NCBI GenBank assembly: GCA_965222075.1
Contig: OZ244937.1
Span: 2,784,001-2,848,000 of the forward strand
Origin: Candidatus Latescibacterota bacterium
GTDB lineage: Bacteria; Latescibacterota; UBA2968; GCA-2709665
DNA length: 64,000 nucleotides
Direction of reading: 5' to 3'
Shown: positions 32,785 through 49,691 of the stretch, in pieces
How positions within the stretch are numbered: the first letter of the stretch is position 1
Layout: every line of letters starts with the position of its first letter
Translations under genes and position numbers: made by a program
Notes under the pieces: model-generated
The model's database searches: none
Seen by the model: only the letters and a program-made list of their open reading frames with translations
What the model was told of the DNA's origin: nothing

Positions 32785-34047
32785 ATGACAGAACGAGATC
32801 GGTGCACGCAGCGCAAAGATTTCCCCTTCTGCCTGTTCTGCGCCTGCCTGGTGCTCCTCTTGTTCTCCCCTTTCACATATGCCCAGACGCCCGGGACCGA
32901 CGCCATCTCCCAAGTTCGGCTCCACACGGTCCAACTTGGAGGTGTTCCCTATCTCTCGCTGGGGGGCCTGGCGGAGACCCTGGGGGGACGGCTTCGTTCC
33001 CACCGGCTCAAGCAAAAAGTCGAACTGAAACTGGGCGGACACACCGTTGTCCTCACCTGGCTCTCGGCCCTCGTTGTCATAGACGATGTGGCCTGCCGGA
33101 TGCCCCTGGAAACCCGGCTCTACAGCGGCGGCGTCCACGTACCGGCGGATGCCTTCCTGACGCTTCTCCAGCGAATCATCCCCAAAGGGCGCATCCGGGT
33201 GGTACGGGAATCCCCCACGGCTGGCGCCGCGCCCCCTCCCTCCCCCGGCCGCCAGACAGAATCCGACGGGCGTGTGCCGAAGGTCGATCCGAAACGCTGG
33301 ACCCTCGACACCGTAATCGTTGATCCCGGCCACGGCGGCAAAGACCCGGGCGCCACAGGTCCGGGTGGAACGGCAGAAAAAAAGATCGCCCTGCGGGTCG
33401 CCAAACGCCTCAAAACCCTCCTGGAAAAGCGGCTTCGCGTCCGTGCCGTCCTCACCCGGGATGACGACACCTTTGTCCCGCTCCGGAAACGGGCTCAAAT
33501 GGCCAGAAAAAGCGGGGGGAAACTCTTTCTCAGCCTCCACTGCAACGCCAGCGAAAACCGGCGTTCCCGGGGCATGGAAGTCTACTTCCTCTCCGAGGCC
33601 AAAACCCTCGAAGCCGCCGAAGTGGCCAGGCGGGAAAACGAGGCTATCGCGTTCGAGAAAAACGGCGCTGATTCAGACCTGCCTGCAGCGCAGAGCACTG
33701 CGCAGGCAGGTGGACTCGATCCAGGACTTGGCGGCATCACCTCCGGTCTCCTCTCCACGCAATTTTTGAAAGAAAGCCAGAATCTGGCCGCCTCGATACG
33801 CACCGAAATTGCTCAGACCCTGGTCGGCGTGGAAGACCGGGGGGTGAAACAGGCCAACTTCTATGTGATGCGATACACCATGGGCGATATGCCCTCTGCC
33901 CTGGTCGAAATGGGCTTTCTTTCCAACCCCACAGAGGAAAAACGGCTGCGCAGCACCGCCTTTCAGAAAGCGATGGCTGAAGCCATCTACCGCGGCCTCA
34001 AAACCTTTAAACGCCGCTATGAACAACAACTCTCAACAGCCAGGTAG
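32785..34047 (+). CDS. N-acetylmuramoyl-L-alanine amidase (Amidase_3) with an 11-codon hairpin insertion
   Basis: VDPGHGGKDPGA, EK, SLHCNA and VEMGFLSN motifs. Confidence 0.93.
   Translation: MTERDRCTQRKDFPFCLFCACLVLLLFSPFTYAQTPGTDAISQVRLHTVQLGGVPYLSLGGLAETLGGRLRSHRLKQKVELKLGGHTVVLTWLSALVVIDDVACRMPLETRLYSGGVHVPADAFLTLLQRIIPKGRIRVVRESPTAGAAPPPSPGRQTESDGRVPKVDPKRWTLDTVIVDPGHGGKDPGATGPGGTAEKKIALRVAKRLKTLLEKRLRVRAVLTRDDDTFVPLRKRAQMARKSGGKLFLSLHCNASENRRSRGMEVYFLSEAKTLEAAEVARRENEAIAFEKNGADSDLPAAQSTAQAGGLDPGLGGITSGLLSTQFLKESQNLAASIRTEIAQTLVGVEDRGVKQANFYVMRYTMGDMPSALVEMGFLSNPTEEKRLRSTAFQKAMAEAIYRGLKTFKRRYEQQLSTAR
33678..33710 (+). repeat. CCTG..CAGG hairpin micro-element, 33 bp, in frame in the amidase
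   Basis: cctgcctgcagcgcagagcactgcgcaggcagg, adding LPAAQSTAQAG. Confidence 0.9.
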
Positions 34048-38638: not shown

Positions 38639-38671
38639 CCTGCCTGCAGCGCAGACCGCTGCGCAGGCAGG
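38639..38671 (+). repeat. CCTG..CAGG hairpin micro-element, 33 bp, inside a GTAG REP
   Basis: cctgcctgcagcgcagaccgctgcgcaggcagg. Confidence 0.9.
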
Positions 38672-42519: not shown

Positions 42520-42549
42520 CCTGCCTGCCGCGCTCGCGGCGCAGGCAGG
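42520..42549 (+). repeat. CCTG..CAGG hairpin micro-element, 30 bp, intergenic
   Basis: cctgcctgccgcgctcgcggcgcaggcagg. Confidence 0.9.
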
Positions 42550-45057: not shown

Positions 45058-45118
45058 CCTGCCTGCAACAGGCAGGCAGCAACCACCTGCCTGCCGAGCA
45101 GATCTCGGCGCAGGCAGG
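45058..45118 (+). repeat. Two CCTG..CAGG elements: a 19-bp mini copy (45058-45076) and a 33-bp copy (45086-45118)
   Basis: cctgcctgcaacaggcagg; cctgcctgccgagcagatctcggcgcaggcagg. Confidence 0.85.
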
Positions 45119-45123
45119 CAGGG

Positions 45124-46653
45124 TCAGAATGCTGATCCCTCCACCAGATCGTATGCCTTGATCCGGCGACGGAGGGTATTGCGCGAAATGCCAAGCAACC
45201 CGGCAGCCCGGCTCTGATTTCCATCGCACCTGCGGATGGCCTCCCCCACCGCCTGCCGTTCAAGCGCGGCCAGATTCAGGCTCTCCACCCCGGCCACATC
45301 CAGCGCAACGGGCAGACCGCCCGCCTCGCAAGGGACAGGCCTGCCTGCTGGCGCGCCAGCGCAGGCAGGCGCCGTCTGCCTGCGGCTGTCCGGCAATCCA
45401 CCCGCCTGCCTGCCGGGCAGATCTCGGCGCAGGCAGGCGCCAACAGTCAGATCCTGCAGGTGATCTGCCCTCACCTGACCGTTCCCGCACAGAATCGCAG
45501 CCCGTTCAATCGTATTGTTCAACTCTCGAACATTGCCAGGAAAAGGGTAGGCCTCCAGCAGCGCCACCGCCTCCGGGGCAAACCCCTGGATCGACTTGCG
45601 CATCTCCTTCGCATACCGGCTTAAAAAGTACTGCGCCAGCGGGAGAATATCCTCCAAACGCTCCCGCAGCAGCGGAACCCGGATGGTGAACACATTGAGC
45701 CGGTAGAACAGATCCTCCCGAAAAACACCCTCACGGACCATCCCGGACAGATCCCGGTTCGTGGCCGAGACCACCCGCACATCCACCGCAACCTCCCTGC
45801 ACCCGCCCACCCGACGGATACACTTCTCCTCCAGGGTGCGCAACAGCTTCCTCTGCATCCCCAGGTCCATATCGCCGATCTCGTCCAAAAACAGCGTGCC
45901 CCCGTCCGCCTGCTCAAAGTGGCCCTTCCGTGCCCGCCGGGCATCGGTGAACGCACCCTGTTCGTGGCCGTAGAACTCGCTTTCAAACAGCGCCTCAGGG
46001 ACGGCCGAGCAATTCACAGGCACAAACGGTCCGCCTGCCCGGGCGCTTTCGGTGTGAATGGCCCGCGCCACCAGCTCCTTGCCCGTACCCGTCTCGCCGC
46101 AGACGAGCACCGTGGTATCCACAGACTGGCAGACCTGCCGGATCTGCTCCCGCACCGCGCAAATGGCCCCACTCTCCCCCACAATCGCCGCCAGCCCAAA
46201 GCGCTGCCTGGACTCCGTGTTGATGCGCTCCAGACGCGCCTGCATCCTGTTCTTCTCCCGATGAAGCCCCTGGTAACGCATGGTCCGCTGCAAAGAAGCG
46301 TTCAGCTCCTCCACCTTGAACGGCTTCGTAAAAAAATCAAAAGCCCCATCCCGCATCGCCCGAAAGGCATGCTCGACCTCACTGAAGGCCGTAATCACAA
46401 TCACCTCCGTATCAGGAGACAGGCGCTTGACCTCCCTTAAGACCTCGAACCCATCCATCCCCGGCATCTTCACATCCGTGATCACGATGTCAACAGCCTC
46501 CCTCCGAAGGACCTTCACGCCCACGAACCCGTCTGCGGCCTCGTAGACCATGTGCCCCCGCGCCTGCAGAAACATCCCCACGGAAGACCGGATCTCCGGG
46601 TCGTCATCAATCACCAGAATGGACATCGGGATCTTTTTGTCGGACCTGGGCAT
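45124..46653 (-). CDS. Sigma-54-dependent response regulator (NtrC family)
   Basis: REC domain (ILVIDDD, DVKMP, TKP), GETGTGKE, GAFTDA, FPGNVREL, Fis HTH; RBS GGAGG before 46653. Confidence 0.92.
   Translation of the reverse strand: MPRSDKKIPMSILVIDDDPEIRSSVGMFLQARGHMVYEAADGFVGVKVLRREAVDIVITDVKMPGMDGFEVLREVKRLSPDTEVIVITAFSEVEHAFRAMRDGAFDFFTKPFKVEELNASLQRTMRYQGLHREKNRMQARLERINTESRQRFGLAAIVGESGAICAVREQIRQVCQSVDTTVLVCGETGTGKELVARAIHTESARAGGPFVPVNCSAVPEALFESEFYGHEQGAFTDARRARKGHFEQADGGTLFLDEIGDMDLGMQRKLLRTLEEKCIRRVGGCREVAVDVRVVSATNRDLSGMVREGVFREDLFYRLNVFTIRVPLLRERLEDILPLAQYFLSRYAKEMRKSIQGFAPEAVALLEAYPFPGNVRELNNTIERAAILCGNGQVRADHLQDLTVGACLRRDLPGRQAGGLPDSRRQTAPACAGAPAGRPVPCEAGGLPVALDVAGVESLNLAALERQAVGEAIRRCDGNQSRAAGLLGISRNTLRRRIKAYDLVEGSAF
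45340..45437 (+). repeat. Two CCTG..CAGG elements (45340-45369, 30 bp; 45405-45437, 33 bp) in frame in the NtrC linker
   Basis: cctgcctgctggcgcgccagcgcaggcagg; cctgcctgccgggcagatctcggcgcaggcagg. Confidence 0.9.
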
Positions 46654-46791: not shown

Positions 46792-47234
46792 GTGGACATG
46801 GCCTTGTGGCAACGTCGTCCCAAGGACGTGATCCATCACTCCGACCAGGGATCGCAGTATACCTCCATCGCCTTTGGTCTGCGCTGCAAAAGGGCCGGTG
46901 TCCGTCCCTCCACAGGATCGGTCGGAGACTGCTTCGACAACGCGATGTGCGAGAGTTTCTTCGCTACACTCGAATGCGAACTGCTCGACCGCCACTGCTT
47001 CCGCATTTACCAGGCCTGCCTGCAGCGCAGGGCACTGCGCAGGCAGGAAGCGCAACGGGCCCTCTTCGCGTATATCGACCTGTCTGCGTGCTACGCACAG
47101 GCAGGGGGGTGGTATAATCCACATCGCAGACATTCAGCTCTGGGATACGACTCACCCACAACCTACGAAGAAAAACACCAGGCATGGGCTTGACACCCAA
47201 GCCTAAAACCGTCCACGAAACCGAGGTAACTCCA
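46792..47234 (+). mobile_element. IS3-family remnant: transposase OrfB C-terminus and right end
   Basis: IHHSDQGSQYTS, GDCFDNAMCESFFATLECE, WYNPHRRHSALGY; ends ..GTCCACGAAACCGAGGTAACTCCA. Confidence 0.88.
47015..47105 (+). repeat. Two CCTG..CAGG elements (47015-47047, 33 bp; 47079-47105, 27 bp) in frame in IS3 OrfB
   Basis: cctgcctgcagcgcagggcactgcgcaggcagg; cctgtctgcgtgctacgcacaggcagg. Confidence 0.92.
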
Positions 47235-47407
47235 GTTAAAGCACTCTATTTCAATCAGCATTACCTGGATCGAATTATTCGCATCTTCGGTTGGGCGCGG
47301 TCCCATAGTGTGACAAAAAAGATAGCATAACATCCTCAATAATTTCTTATGGTTAGAGGAAAGTTTGGGAAATTTACTTCTAACCAACAAGAATCAGAAA
47401 GGACGTT

Positions 47408-48925
47408 ATGCTGGATCATATCATAGATCAAGTGACAGAAAAAGTCAACCAAAAGTTGCCTAAGATGGTGAGCGACCTGCAAGAGAGTCTTTCGTTTGCC
47501 GACTTGGAGCATGGCTTGATCGGTTTGCTCCAGGAGGTGGTGGGCATCGTCGTGAGTCCGGTGTTGAATCAGGTTTTTCAGGATGAGGCCTTGCTGTTTG
47601 GGCTGCGTCAGGCAGCCGGTAGTATGGGCTACAGATATAAGGAACATCGGCCTTTGACCGTACGGGTTTTGGAAGGTGTAGAAGTTGAAGTCTCTTCGCC
47701 CTATTTCGTTAAGCGGGGTCGCAAACGGGGCAGGAAGAAGCGGGGTCCCAATGGTCGAGGGTGTCATCTGTTATTGGATGTGCTTGGGTTTATCGGTCGG
47801 TGCAGTCCGGAGTTTGTAGATGAAGCTGTGAAGTTGGCCTTGTTATGCCCCTCCTTTGAGGTGGCCACTCAGGTGTTGGATGCCCGTCAGATAAAGCTGG
47901 ACAAAAAAACCCTTCGAAGATTGTGCAAAGCTTTAGGCGAATTGGGTCTGGAGCAGAGAGCCACGATTGCTCTAAAAGATGAGCTCTCCTTTTCAGGTCG
48001 CACGGTGTATATCGGCATCGATGGGGGTCGGATGCGGATGCGTGAGCCCAAGCGGGGTCGAAAGCCAAAGGGAAAGAAATATCCCCGATATGATACACCT
48101 TGGAGAGAACCCAAGTTGTTTACCATCTACATGTTGGACGAAAAAGGTCGCGTCGAAAAATCGTGGACGCCTATCCACGATGCGACTCGGGGCAATGCCG
48201 ATTTGATGTTTGAGATGCTGGAAGCTACCCTTTTGGAACTGCCCCTGCAACAGGCCGATCGGGTCGTGTTTATCGCCGATGGGGCAGAATGGATCTGGCC
48301 GAGGGTAGAGCGTCTGATCTGGAGGTTGGGGGTGCCTCCAAGCAAGGCGATCCAGATCCTCGACTATTACCATAATAGTGAAACCCTCTTTGAACTGGTG
48401 CAACTCCAACCCAAGCTTAAAGAAAAGGCACAACGTGCCCTGTATGAGACGTGGAAGACCTGGATGTGGAATGGGGAGCTTTTAAAACTCCGACCTGCCT
48501 GTGCGTGCTGTCTCACGCACGCAGACAGGAAAGAAGTGCTCCAGCAGCTTCGCGGGGAAAAACGAAAACAGGCCATCACATCCCTGAACCATTTCGACCG
48601 TCATGCGCATCGAATGCGCTATCCTACCTTCAAAGAACAGGGCCTTCCCACCTGTCTGCGTGCCACGCACAGGCAGGTCGGAAGTGGACACGTCGAAAGC
48701 GCCATCCGTCGTGTCATCAACCTTCGGATCAAAGCACCAGGCACGTTCTGGAAAAAAGACATGGGCGAATACTTCCTGTTTCTGCGCTCACAGTTGATCT
48801 GTGGAAGATGGCCTATCTTCTTCCAGAATGTCACAGGACGATACCGAACGGGTGAGTTTGCCCAACATCTCTTTCCCTCTTCTCCGAAAATGGGTTTGCT
48901 CAAGACAGGGACAGATGATCACTAA
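47408..48925 (+). CDS. DDE transposase (ISKra4/ISLre2-like) carrying two in-frame hairpin insertions
   Basis: IDGG, ADGAEWIW, LDYYH and RMRY....G.P[insert]GSG.VES motifs. Confidence 0.88.
   Translation: MLDHIIDQVTEKVNQKLPKMVSDLQESLSFADLEHGLIGLLQEVVGIVVSPVLNQVFQDEALLFGLRQAAGSMGYRYKEHRPLTVRVLEGVEVEVSSPYFVKRGRKRGRKKRGPNGRGCHLLLDVLGFIGRCSPEFVDEAVKLALLCPSFEVATQVLDARQIKLDKKTLRRLCKALGELGLEQRATIALKDELSFSGRTVYIGIDGGRMRMREPKRGRKPKGKKYPRYDTPWREPKLFTIYMLDEKGRVEKSWTPIHDATRGNADLMFEMLEATLLELPLQQADRVVFIADGAEWIWPRVERLIWRLGVPPSKAIQILDYYHNSETLFELVQLQPKLKEKAQRALYETWKTWMWNGELLKLRPACACCLTHADRKEVLQQLRGEKRKQAITSLNHFDRHAHRMRYPTFKEQGLPTCLRATHRQVGSGHVESAIRRVINLRIKAPGTFWKKDMGEYFLFLRSQLICGRWPIFFQNVTGRYRTGEFAQHLFPSSPKMGLLKTGTDDH
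48494..48529 (-). repeat. CCTG..CAGG element, 36 bp, inverted orientation, in frame in the transposase
   Basis: cctgcctgtgcgtgctgtctcacgcacgcagacagg, adding PACACCLTHADR. Confidence 0.88.
48651..48677 (+). repeat. CCTG..CAGG element, 27 bp, in frame within the PIGSG motif
   Basis: cctgtctgcgtgccacgcacaggcagg. Confidence 0.92.
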
Positions 48926-49691
48926 CGCAATCAACCGCTTATTCAACAACTTAACACGACTTTCTATATGTCATACTTTAGGACTGCACCCTCTTCGGTT
49001 TGGACAATATGGTGAACAGTTTTTCTGCGTATGAGTTCAAATAAATCAAGGGGTTACAAATGGACGCCCTTTTTTTTTAAACTTAGCCCATCCCCTGAGT
49101 TTAAAAAAACGGCTGATTTAAAAAAGGCTTGTATTTTAACAACTTATCATTTTTAAGCCGTTAAGAACTTACCAAAAAGTATTCACAGTATTGATATCGT
49201 TGCCACAATGACAATAACGAAGATCACGAAAATAAAAACCAACATCAACATGTTGAATCTCCTTTCACGTCAACAGGGGGGTAATGTCTTAAATTTCCTG
49301 CAAAAAGAACCGGCGCGAACTATCTTCCTGAGGTCATTATCAAACTCAACGCCCCGAGTGGGCACAATGCCATCGGCATGGACAAACGGGATGGGCGGGT
49401 TGGACTTCACATGTAGCCGATCATCACCGCGGTAACAGGCGGAACGTCTTCTTCGCTCATTTCCTCCTCCTTTCAGTTGATGTTCGAGAGTCCGCCGTGG
49501 ACGGTGCTGCGTGGTCCGTTCATCGAACAAGAGCGCCCGCGAAGCGTTCGTGGGCTCGGGAGATTCCCCAGCAGACAGCAGGTCGGGTCACGCTCATGAC
49601 CGCCACGGCGGGCTCGATGCTCCATTTTGTCCGAACCTCGTCATGCGTTCCCAGAATGTTGACCCCCGGCACCTCCTGGTGAAGAGACTGA

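Follow-up and report, generated by a model that had tools for sequence, protein, structure and literature searches.

Insertion sequence and transposase gene

The window, by which we mean the whole 64,000-nucleotide stretch of Candidatus Latescibacterota DNA that was analysed, contains an ISKra4-like insertion sequence (IS), here called copy A, whose transposase gene carries two short hairpin elements; further members of the same hairpin family lie to its left (Table 1). The ends of copy A were set by homology to a second copy in the same genome (copy B, genome positions 3463599-3465401), which starts and stops exactly at the first and last base listed for the element. A 9-bp duplication is present at both copies, and the two duplications differ in sequence. 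The first-pass annotation had described an IS with both of its ends, a perfect 9-bp duplication and an open frame of 505 aa, and this description is borne out. The IS itself was not found among the 40 relatives searched, in which all matches were to hairpins only.

The best model for the 505-aa transposase is the NCBIfam ISKra4 model (NF033572; E 3.7e-32), its Pfam match is PF06782, and its top Foldseek matches are ISCth4 transposase chains (E 3.8e-5 to 3.6e-4, TM 0.30-0.45). The ISKra4 group is placed among the Mutator-related prokaryotic transposases as p-MULT 4 by Guerillot et al. 2014 (PMC3942029). Like that group, the host IS combines inverted repeats with a 9-bp duplication and with a DDE-type fold that is closest to that of the IS256-family ISCth4, but unlike ISKra4 equivalogs its transposase scores below the curated cut-off of 205 bits, reaching 112 bits with the inserts and 129.7 bits in an insert-free form (P0122). 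By sequence comparison the host transposase is thus best described as a distant relative of the ISKra4 family and no equivalog. Residues D205, D291 and E430 (E409 in insert-free numbering) are invariant in 15/15 aligned sequences, and this conservation, taken with the predicted RNase-H-like fold of Mutator/IS256 type, points to them as a candidate catalytic triad.

Table 1 Features of the insertion sequence and hairpin family members in the window
Feature	Position	Strand	Remarks
33-nt family member	33678-33710		from the census
33-nt family member	38639-38671		from the census
30-nt family member	42520-42549		from the census
33-nt family member	45086-45118		a few bases downstream of the stop codon of the sigma-54 response regulator
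30-nt family member	45340-45369		in frame, in the linker of the sigma-54 response regulator (45127-46620, minus strand)
33-nt family member	45405-45437		same linker of the sigma-54 response regulator
33-nt element, sister subfamily	47015-47047		IS3-type remnant (ORF 46792-47193)
27-nt element	47079-47105	-	same neighbouring IS3-type integrase-core remnant
9-bp target-site duplication, left copy	47284-47292		same 9-mer at 48992-49000
Left terminal inverted repeat	47293-47317	+	19/25 positions match the reverse complement of the right end
ISKra4-like IS (copy A)	47293-48991	+	1699 bp, of which 63 bp are hairpin inserts
Transposase ORF	47408-48925	+	505 aa; 484 aa without the two inserts; candidate triad D205, D291, E430
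36-nt hairpin element, site d	48494-48529	+	adds 12 aa after L361
27-nt hairpin element, site g	48651-48677	- (canonical strand minus)	adds 9 aa between P414 and G425
Right terminal inverted repeat	48967-48991	-	pairs with the left end, 19/25
9-bp target-site duplication, right copy	48992-49000		perfect direct repeat of the left copy

Two in-frame inserts in the transposase

Both inserts are imperfect palindromes within the 505-aa frame, and the arm motif that they have in common occurs four times in the window against 0.13 expected, a count that was reached in 0/100 shuffles. The first-pass annotation had read the two stretches as inserted micro-elements whose deletion restores the motif GLPIGSGHVES, and this is exactly the state of the relatives: 15/15 aligned homologues (42-89% identity) lack both the 12-aa and the 9-aa stretch and read G-L-P-I-G-S-G-H-V-E-S. 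Six proteins of 484 aa (505 minus 21) at 99% identity, which come from other assemblies, together with one 482-aa variant, are free of every insert, and the 484-aa proteins are present on up to 8 contigs. At the DNA level, contigs from four runs of four studies skip 48494-48529 exactly, and in two of these runs (X7 and X18) exactly 27 nt are additionally missing at 48651; the 1636-nt contig of run X7 corresponds to 47293-48991 minus both inserts, which is the whole IS in insert-free form. Moreover, the identical 36-mer of site d and identical 27-mers of site g recur elsewhere in the genome. These comparisons confirm, at the level of sequence, that both stretches are insertions into a pre-existing transposase gene, seamless and in frame.

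A different explanation is that this transposase lineage itself has variable loops at the two places, so that the stretches of 9 and 12 aa would be native, as their reading frame and the open ORF would allow. The stretches are missing from every one of the 15 homologues and from the 99%-identical 484-aa copies, are skipped exactly by contigs from elsewhere, and consist of DNA that is repeated at unrelated loci, so that native loops can be regarded as next to impossible. The objection, raised with the first-pass annotation itself, that homologous transposases might routinely carry a loop at the 9-aa site fails because no homologue has one there.

The 36-nt insert splits a helix that has pLDDT >90 in the insert-free AlphaFold model, and the 27-nt insert is placed directly against the helix that bears E430; AlphaFold models of the protein with and lacking the inserts give the position of the inserts and carry no information on whether the enzyme works. 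The 27-nt insert, which lies six residues ahead of E430, also turns an isoleucine into a valine. An earlier claim that this insert falls in the motif of a catalytic residue stands insofar as the insert adjoins the conserved G-S-G-x-V-E-S with its invariant glutamate, whereas the catalytic role of that glutamate is one that we infer.

A dispersed family of bulged hairpins

Both inserts are members of a hitherto undescribed family of bulged hairpins of 25-36 nt that start with 5' CCTG and end with CAGG 3' in all subfamilies, and from which the REP tags GTAG and CGTC are absent. The canonical strand reads CCTGCC...ACAGG and folds into four unpaired 5' nucleotides followed by a stem that is interrupted by a 2-nt bulge and capped by a 3-nt loop. 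The genome holds 238 copies, compared with four in a reversed-sequence control, and 19/41 genomes of relatives hold between 1 and 85 copies with no control match in any of them. A scan of public genomes returned at least 121 stretches of the family, of which the 80 loci among the matches listed span many phyla, and viral contigs contributed 33 stretches. Rfam 15 gave no match at E up to 1 for positions 46900-49100. Literature searches with the hairpin-arm sequences gave unrelated papers among the matches listed, with the reservation that the supplementary lists of PMC3733652 might contain related sequences; searches for Latescibacteria and repeats returned nothing relevant.

Near copy A, the 27-nt element of the IS3-type remnant, whose host ORF has integrase core (rve) domains, is 96% identical to 48650-48677, and the sister-subfamily element in the same remnant has a predicted DNA fold of -14.4 kcal/mol (z -3.4). 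According to Pfam, the linker of the sigma-54 response regulator that holds two members follows the AAA lid, which ends at residue 390, and precedes HTH_8, which begins at residue 450.

The length of the elements is a multiple of three in 188/238 copies in the genome, in 72/80 cross-phylum loci among the matches listed and in 33/33 viral loci, and 126 of 145 distinct elements are stop-free in all six frames, compared with 83.9 ± 5.3 in dinucleotide shuffles; these counts, drawn from four or five related subfamilies, are not independent. Among the matches listed for one relative (G009), a 28-nt variant is common. Pfam domains were found in 17 of the 20 host ORFs tested, and in-frame copies occur in real genes, including uvrA-like, purL, AcrB-type and Cas4-Cas1 genes. 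Since some of these are housekeeping genes, in-frame copies appear, from their sequence context, to be translated as loops of 9-13 aa. The persistence of hairpin-encoded loops of this kind in uvrA and purL matters for annotation, for protein-family alignments and for the interpretation of indels in metagenome-assembled genomes.

Most copies lie in non-coding-like DNA according to a codon-usage test of limited sensitivity, which called 1293/3000 random positions intragenic. This test replaced an ORF-span test, which was dropped as uninformative because at 59% G+C some 97% of random positions fall in open frames of 100 codons or more. Repeats that are 500 nt or longer contain 15/238 copies against 6.8 expected, and 7 of the 15 are in the ISKra4-like IS. 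Another repeated segment holds three elements.

Polymorphic insert sites and their junctions

Copy B shares both inserts of copy A, at the same sites and with identical sequence. From the distinct duplications and the shared inserts, the inserts therefore appear to be older than at least one transposition event, unless each site was struck twice or the copies exchanged sequence, and the proposal of the first-pass annotation that both arrived after a fairly recent IS insertion is not supported. If the inserts are older than the split of the two copies, the insert-bearing IS must have moved on one or more occasions, through its own enzyme or possibly in trans through the enzyme of an insert-free copy. 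Up to six family elements are found in one 1.8-kb IS copy, and two members of 25 nt frameshift the transposase of copy B.

These observations bear on the possibility that the enzyme is made free of the inserts, through their excision from the transcript in the manner of a mini-intron or through ribosomal bypass during translation. Hairpins could in principle act as processing signals, and the contig of run X18, which lacks both inserts, comes from an RNA library. Insert-free DNA copies exist, as seen in the X7 contig and in the 484-aa proteins, and therefore the RNA contig needs no splicing; removal of the insert, which the first-pass annotation had left as an option, gives way here to polymorphism between copies. 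Assembled contigs of other samples lend no support to RNA-level removal, contigs cannot in any case reveal processing, and an RNA library may contain DNA. The excess of multiple-of-three and stop-free elements is predicted by translation through the insert and would be needless if the insert were removed, and in copy B the frame is disrupted by 25-nt members. We consider removal at the RNA level to be extremely improbable.

Comparison of 21 near-identical transposase proteins reveals eight polymorphic insert sites (a-h) that are filled in mixed combinations, with 7 of the proteins insert-free, such that some copies share the inserts, some lack them and some differ in them. All four combinations of presence and absence are found for the site pairs b/g and a/b; mixed combinations could equally arise if IS copies recombined with one another or if hot spots were hit repeatedly. 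Filled and empty sites could be compared directly between the two IS copies of the genome in four pairs, and in 4/4 the target duplication is absent, the junction is unshiftable and the element ends are exact, as the earlier suggestion of insertion without target duplication had anticipated. No crossover dinucleotide is shared by the two junctions at these filled/empty sites.

On the canonical strand, the four bases before the element follow the motif C-N-N-R, and this motif is one-sided. The C at -4 is present at 8/8 IS sites, of which six were read from DNA and two were deduced from the protein position and the DNA of the window. Genome-wide, among 60 members of subfamily A, position -4 is C in 48, position -1 is A or G in 59 and position +1 is T or C in 55, with the right flank unconserved beyond +1 and a flanking base pair A...T or G...C in 48/60.

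These junctions argue against a reading in which the hairpins are minimal MITE-like elements that move as duplex DNA by means of a DDE transposase or a site-specific recombinase. It is possible to see short terminal inverted repeats in the two arms, and the genome has many DDE ISs. However, MITEs differ from the hairpin family in having a target-site duplication, the target motif here is one-sided, the two junctions share no crossover dinucleotide, and from general knowledge of DDE transposition 25-36 bp is too short for a duplex synaptic complex. A duplex mode of movement is, for these reasons, improbable.

A further possibility is that the elements spread mainly by recombination, gene conversion or templated repair, and that the pattern within the IS reflects exchange between IS copies. 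The occurrence of all four combinations at site pairs in 99%-identical ISs would follow readily, and multi-copy ISs make conversion easy. Such exchange cannot make the first copy at each of eight new IS sites, nor can it make the in-frame copies in the single-copy purL and uvrA-like genes, and the conserved one-sided motif argues for an enzyme that chooses its site. Spread mainly by conversion is thus unlikely, though it deserves consideration.

The density of elements within the IS also raises the question of whether a host function inserts hairpins deliberately to cripple ISs and foreign DNA, a hypothesis that fits the six elements in one copy, the eight polymorphic sites, the three elements in another repeated segment and the two frameshifting members. 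Nevertheless, the enrichment in repeated DNA is modest (15 versus 6.8, with 7 in a single IS), copies also lie in housekeeping genes and for the most part in non-coding-like DNA, and most copies keep the frame. The local density is explained by a neutral build-up of copies in genes that are dispensable. Deliberate crippling is very improbable on this evidence. Hairpin insertion offers a possible path to the decay or modulation of ISs.

Proposed mode of movement and candidate enzymes

On balance, it is probable that a mobile family of 25-36-nt hairpins entered the ISKra4-like gene and that it moves in single-stranded form by means of an HUH/Y1 enzyme acting in trans. Movement of this type has been proposed for REPs and shown for IS200/IS605. 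By analogy with these systems, an HUH/Y1 tyrosine transposase would carry the elements from place to place as single strands, with the unpaired 5' CCTG as a guide that would pick both the element's own 3' end, CAGG, which is its exact complement, and CAGG-like targets. Precise excision is possible in IS200/IS605-type transposition, and the single-strand route would permit it here also.

Relative to replication, with the origin and terminus placed by a clear GC skew, the elements show a weak orientation bias of 37:23 (subfamily A) and 15:7 (subfamily C), and the direction of the bias differs from that expected were the canonical strand IS608 top-strand-like.

The genome encodes one IS200-type TnpA (genome positions 2071937-2072380) and two RAYT-like genes (at about 3242104-3242871 and 1858861-1859469) as potential Y1 enzymes. 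No transposase could be tied to the family in this genome and five hairpin-rich relatives, where other, unrelated palindromes flank the IS200-type gene as well as each of the RAYT-like genes examined; the hairpins of the IS200 copy in the genome are unrelated to the family. At the RAYT loci of the five relatives, 4/23 have any CCTG-type hairpin, the placement is inconsistent, and other palindromes are present. Across 41 relatives, the number of Y1_Tnp (PF01797) matches had no clear association with hairpin counts: G019, with its 85 hairpins, gave no PF01797 match but weak RAYT-like matches to a more sensitive model, and G004 and G038 have 32 and 75 matches, respectively, and no hairpin. The PF01797 search is insensitive because it missed the genome's own RAYT-like gene. 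An IS91-type Y2 transposase was also considered as the mover and rejected, as one broken fragment was all that was found.

A bolder extension of the single-strand reading, which we put forward tentatively and hold to be possible but doubtful, is that the hairpins would form an orphan, CCTG-tagged third superfamily of REP-like single-strand micro-transposons distributed across bacterial phyla and viruses. Such elements would have evolved lengths in multiples of three and freedom from stop codons to settle in ORFs, such as those of IS transposases, DNA-repair genes and phage genes, would insert seamlessly after a CAGG-like tetranucleotide chosen by the 5' CCTG guide and leave without a scar, and would still be on the move in natural populations, which the eight polymorphic sites in a single 99%-identical IS suggest. 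Their enzyme would perhaps be of a kind not yet linked to REPs.

Comparison with known palindromic elements

REP-type hairpins are among the commonest repeats in bacteria. To our knowledge, their movement has rarely been caught and their targets are largely unknown. The ISKra4-like IS is a natural insertion trap, with near-identical copies that carry or lack inserts at eight sites, and its filled and empty copies give exact junctions, the lack of a duplication and a one-sided motif, such that REP-like movement becomes testable with defined substrates.

The CCTG hairpins are a further variant of REP-like elements, and intragenic REPs are themselves not new: the available text of Di Nocera et al. 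2013 (PMC3733652) already names uvrA and UvrD-type helicase genes among their hosts, describes the CGTC REP superfamily as having no dedicated transposase, makes no mention in that part of insertion sites or duplications, and cites the Rickettsia palindromic elements (RPEs). As far as REPs are described there, the hairpin family resembles them in consisting of imperfect palindromes of 20-40 nt with tens to hundreds of copies and a patchy distribution across phyla, in having an unpaired 5' tetranucleotide followed by a stem-loop, and in lying mostly outside genes with an in-frame minority whose hosts in both cases include uvrA and UvrD-type helicases; with the CGTC REPs it has in common that no dedicated transposase is known. 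It differs from REPs in its tag, which is CCTG instead of GTAG or CGTC, and in its stem with a 2-nt bulge, and no REPtron was found; in comparison with REPs, its junctions, missing duplication and one-sided motif were read directly from filled and empty sites.

The design of a tag with a bulged stem is that of the REPs cleaved by TnpA-REP (RAYT), in which Corneloup et al. 2021 (PMC8266576) present the bulge or mismatch as functionally needed. In TnpA-REP and IS200/IS605 systems, a 5' tetranucleotide guides the choice of cleavage site, a role that we infer for the hairpin family. As in IS200/IS605, there is no target duplication and insertion is beside a short one-sided target; unlike IS200/IS605 elements, which have separate left and right hairpins and their own tnpA, a family member is a single hairpin of 25-36 nt without a gene.

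RPEs are selfish palindromic repeats that lie in frame within coding genes and are tolerated as extra peptide segments; the classic RPE-1 is longer than 25-36 nt and confined to one genus. The hairpin family is likewise found in frame in genes, but its members are 25-36 nt long and occur in many phyla. Dispersed cyanobacterial repeats of about 21-27 nt were reportedly described by Elhai et al. in 2008 as including hairpin-forming members, as nested in ISs and other repeats and as arguably mobile; they differ from the present family in sequence and in hosts.

Inserts in the transposase gene

The transposase gene of the insertion sequence in the window (copy A of the IS) carries two imperfect palindromes, at sites d and g (Table), that share an arm motif found four times in the window versus 0.13 expected. 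Neither stretch is present in any of 15 aligned homologues (42-89% identity), all of which read G-L-P-I-G-S-G-H-V-E-S, the motif that the first-pass annotation had recovered by deleting 48651-48677, and the usual homologue length of 484 aa equals 505 - 21. Assembled contigs from four sequencing runs in four studies, one contig per run, skip 48494-48529 exactly with an unambiguous joint; in runs X7 and X18 exactly 27 nt are missing at 48651 as well, and the 1636-nt X7 contig is the complete IS minus both inserts. The X1 and X13 contigs end at element borders, as expected if filled and empty forms coexist. The absence in homologues together with these exact skips identifies both stretches as inserted elements, and sites d, g and their relatives are almost certainly mobile inserts. 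The 90%-identity clusters of the 505-aa protein and of its frameshifted sister hold 30 members, nine of them short fragments (146-258 aa) excluded from alignment. Among the 21 aligned, near-identical transposases, seven are insert-free (six of 484 aa, one of 482 aa) and 14 have 1-6 inserts each, distributed over eight sites (a-h). Every presence/absence combination (four each) is found for b/g and for a/b, and the history of these copies must therefore include inter-copy recombination, repeated hits or precise loss, with which the mixed combinations are equally compatible.

Features of the window and genome. Positions are those of the window unless marked genome; for sites a-h, the four bases are target positions -4 to -1.
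Feature	Position	Strand	Length	Remarks
IS copy A	47293-48991	+		terminal inverted repeats and 9-bp duplication
Target-site duplication flanking copy A	47284-47292 and 48992-49000		9 bp	perfect
Transposase ORF	47408-48925	+	505 aa	single open frame
Site a	after M209		27 nt	CGGA
Site b	after D265		27 nt	CCGA
Site c	after D284		27 nt	CCGA (inferred)
Site d	after L361, 48494-48529		36 nt	CCGA
Site e	after Q379		33 nt	CCAG (inferred)
Site f	after H401		25 nt	CGCA
Site g	after P414, 48651-48677		27 nt	CCGA, opposite strand of IS
Site h	after D503		25 nt	CAGA
IS copy B	genome 3463599-3465401			own 9-bp duplication; 9 single-position differences from copy A
Copy B extra insert	after 48038		27 nt	empty in copy A
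Copy B extra insert	after 48201		27 nt	empty in copy A
Copy B extra insert	after 48609		25 nt	empty in copy A
Copy B extra insert	after 48915		25 nt	empty in copy A
Sigma-54 response regulator	45127-46620	-		receiver, AAA+, lid, HTH_8
IS3-type integrase core remnant	46792-47193			two in-frame hairpins, 33 and 27 nt
RAYT-like tyrosine transposase gene	genome 3242104-3242871 (locus L174, 997-1764)			own unrelated palindrome family
RAYT-like tyrosine transposase gene	genome 1858861-1859469 (locus L182)			own unrelated palindrome family

The IS keeps its inverted repeats (imperfect, 19/25 positions matching), its duplication and its open frame, as had been described. The best model for the 505-aa protein is NCBIfam ISKra4 (E 3.7e-32; 112 bits, below the 205-bit cut-off), Pfam PF06782 is also matched, and D205, D291 and E430 are invariant in 15/15 aligned transposase sequences. 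The structure nearest to its AlphaFold model is the IS256-family ISCth4 transposase, in line with PMC3942029, which places ISKra4 with the Mutator-related transposases. The IS is present in 20 of 24 runs among those listed (8 studies), and the only runs recorded as RNA carry the label sponge metagenome. Summed depth over 48672-48735 is very high in the four runs examined for it, the source being short contigs over 48691-48732 that seem to represent a much more abundant relative of the transposase.

Second IS copy and effect on the transposase

The genome (one 5.36-Mb contig, 59% G+C) holds a second copy of the IS, copy B, with the same 36-nt and 27-nt inserts and four further ones for which copy A provides the empty-site reference. 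At 4/4 filled/empty sites the inserted block begins with CCTG and finishes with CAGG, with no base duplicated and none lost, which bears out the proposal of insertion without target duplication; the junctions are unshiftable because the neighbouring bases are not those at the element's ends. The copy B transposase is broken by a frameshift that the 25-nt insert after 48609 causes. Since copies A and B share inserts d and g at different loci and within different duplications, both inserts predate at least one IS transposition. Identical double hits or gene conversion are the alternatives that would explain the inserts common to the two copies. The first-pass observation and its main interpretation hold, and one of its options, that both inserts arrived after a recent IS insertion, is contradicted.

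In the insert-free AlphaFold model (mean pLDDT 79.8), residues 358-367 form a single confident helix and the G-S-G-x-V-E-S block opens helix 406-417. With both inserts present (505 aa, mean pLDDT 73.6), the model shows the 12-aa insert as a low-confidence loop (363-373) that divides the first of these helices, and the 9-aa insert as a low-confidence loop (418-427) directly before the helix now starting at E430. The remaining predicted fold is preserved. That the 505-aa transposase retains activity is a tentative reading, somewhat short of an even chance, supported by the sharing of inserts between two separately inserted IS copies. An easy alternative is that insert-free copies move the insert-bearing IS in trans, and insert-free copies of the transposase are indeed found on more contigs.

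Target and spread of the family

Target bases were read on the strand on which the element is CCTGCC...ACAGG, with the flanks of six sites taken from DNA and those of sites c and e inferred from protein position and window DNA. Among 60 genome-wide subfamily members with distinct flanks, C occupies -4 in 48 and -3 in 35, a purine stands at -1 in 59 and a pyrimidine at +1 in 55, with no conservation past +1 on the element's far side; in 48/60 the two bases next to the element are each other's complement (A/T or G/C). The target is similar to the element's own 3' end, CAGG, itself the exact complement of the 5' CCTG.

A structural census (ends CCYGYCYG and CRGRCRGG, length 21-48 nt, at least 9 stacked pairs) returned 238 elements, 229 of them with distinct flanks, versus 4 raw hits when the genome was reversed; the main lengths are 33 (93 copies), 27 (56), 30 (18), 25 (17) and 36 nt (13). 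When single-stranded, the canonical strand is predicted to leave four 5' bases unpaired and then to form a stem that has a bulge of 2 nt and a loop of 3 nt. The strict pattern occurs in 19 of 41 related genomes (1-85 copies each; control hits zero), and a one-genome-per-species scan found at least 121 stretches. By record title, the 80 loci listed include Thermodesulfobacteriota, Brocadiaceae, Zetaproteobacteria, Latescibacterota, Verrucomicrobiota, Methylomirabilis, Nitrospirota, WOR-3, Bipolaricaulota, Patescibacteria and further groups; 33 stretches lie on viral contigs. The 33-nt subfamily is often found inside longer repeats of 100-200 nt in dozens of copies (genome 388140-394139 and many loci), which suggests composite, BIME-like mosaic elements. 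Outside the window, both copies of another repeated segment (genome 1604218-1604556 and 4161490-4161828) share one set of three hairpins (25, 27 and 25 nt); this second repeat family was therefore duplicated after gaining inserts.

Possible mechanism

The elements insert seamlessly and have fixed ends, their target is a one-sided stretch of four bases, their bulged hairpin leaves a 5' tetranucleotide unpaired, and the insert pattern is compatible with clean loss. These features are hallmarks of HUH/Y1 single-strand transposition. In IS200/IS605 and in TnpA-REP cleavage of REP, the 5' tetranucleotide guides cleavage-site choice and the bulge is needed, according to PMC8266576. A Y1 enzyme in trans would move the hairpin as single-stranded DNA, with CCTG serving as the guide. 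Several observations count against this reading. The IS200 TnpA and two RAYT-like (TnpA-REP type) genes of the genome are flanked by other palindromes, as are the RAYT-like genes of five hairpin-rich relatives; hairpin counts are not tracked by Y1 matches across the 41 related genomes; and strand bias is weak relative to the clear replication origin and terminus (near 4.21 and 1.34 Mb by cumulative GC skew, with the window at 2.78-2.85 Mb on the replichore with a C-rich plus strand). A single-strand/HUH route for the family is put at only slightly under an even chance. At least five other REP families occur in the clade, each with its own enzyme. The RAYT-like gene at 1858861-1859469 apparently contains a palindrome of its own type in frame, with a truncated duplicate upstream. 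In the related genomes G002, G009, G018, G020 and G021, RAYT-like genes sit among arrayed copies of a 19-22-nt palindrome that has no relation to the CCTG family, and ORFs of ~1200 aa with a Y1-like segment lie ~10-16 kb from them.

Coding context and known systems

Lengths are multiples of three in 188/238 census copies, 72/80 of the cross-phylum loci listed and 33/33 viral loci, and 126 of 145 distinct sequences have no stop in six frames versus 83.9 ± 5.3 in dinucleotide-preserving shuffles (maximum 98 in 200); these counts are suggestive only, because just a few related subfamilies underlie them. By codon usage, 23/181 multiple-of-three copies, 0/48 of other lengths and 1293/3000 random positions lie inside a continuous coding frame, and neither flank is coding-like for 108/181, 35/48 and 637/3000, respectively. 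The family therefore lies mostly outside typical genes, as do REPs. The Pfam test covered 20 host ORFs, comprising 19 of the 23 in-frame calls (the other four, open frames of 149-181 codons, were excluded) and one frame-shifted call, two of the 20 being parts of one long uvrA-type frame. Domains were found in 17: hosts include PurL, a UvrA-type gene (two elements), a UvrD-type helicase, an AcrB-type pump in which the insert interrupts the domain match, a second AcrB-type ORF that carries an element close to the 3' end, molybdopterin dehydrogenase, hydantoinase A, a Cas4-Cas1 fusion, a histidine kinase, an ABC transporter, a type I restriction R subunit, a glycosyltransferase, a C25 peptidase, an fn3/LRR protein (two elements), a beta-propeller (FG-GAP) repeat protein and an EamA-family transporter.

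Rickettsia provides the classic case of in-frame palindromic elements. Intragenic REPs, including uvrA and uvrD-type hosts, and a REP superfamily without a transposase are already described (PMC3733652). The literature covered held nothing relevant on the arm sequences or like descriptions. Apparently new are the CCTG-tagged family itself, its wide occurrence in different phyla and on viral contigs, the filled and empty sites that directly show seamless insertion guided by a motif, and the surplus of copies that are multiples of three in length and free of stops.

In the window, the sigma-54 regulator has two in-frame hairpins (33 and 30 nt) in its lid-HTH linker. A third family hairpin lies directly beyond its stop codon (hairpins span 45086-45437), and the ISKra4-like IS lies directly downstream of the IS3-type remnant.
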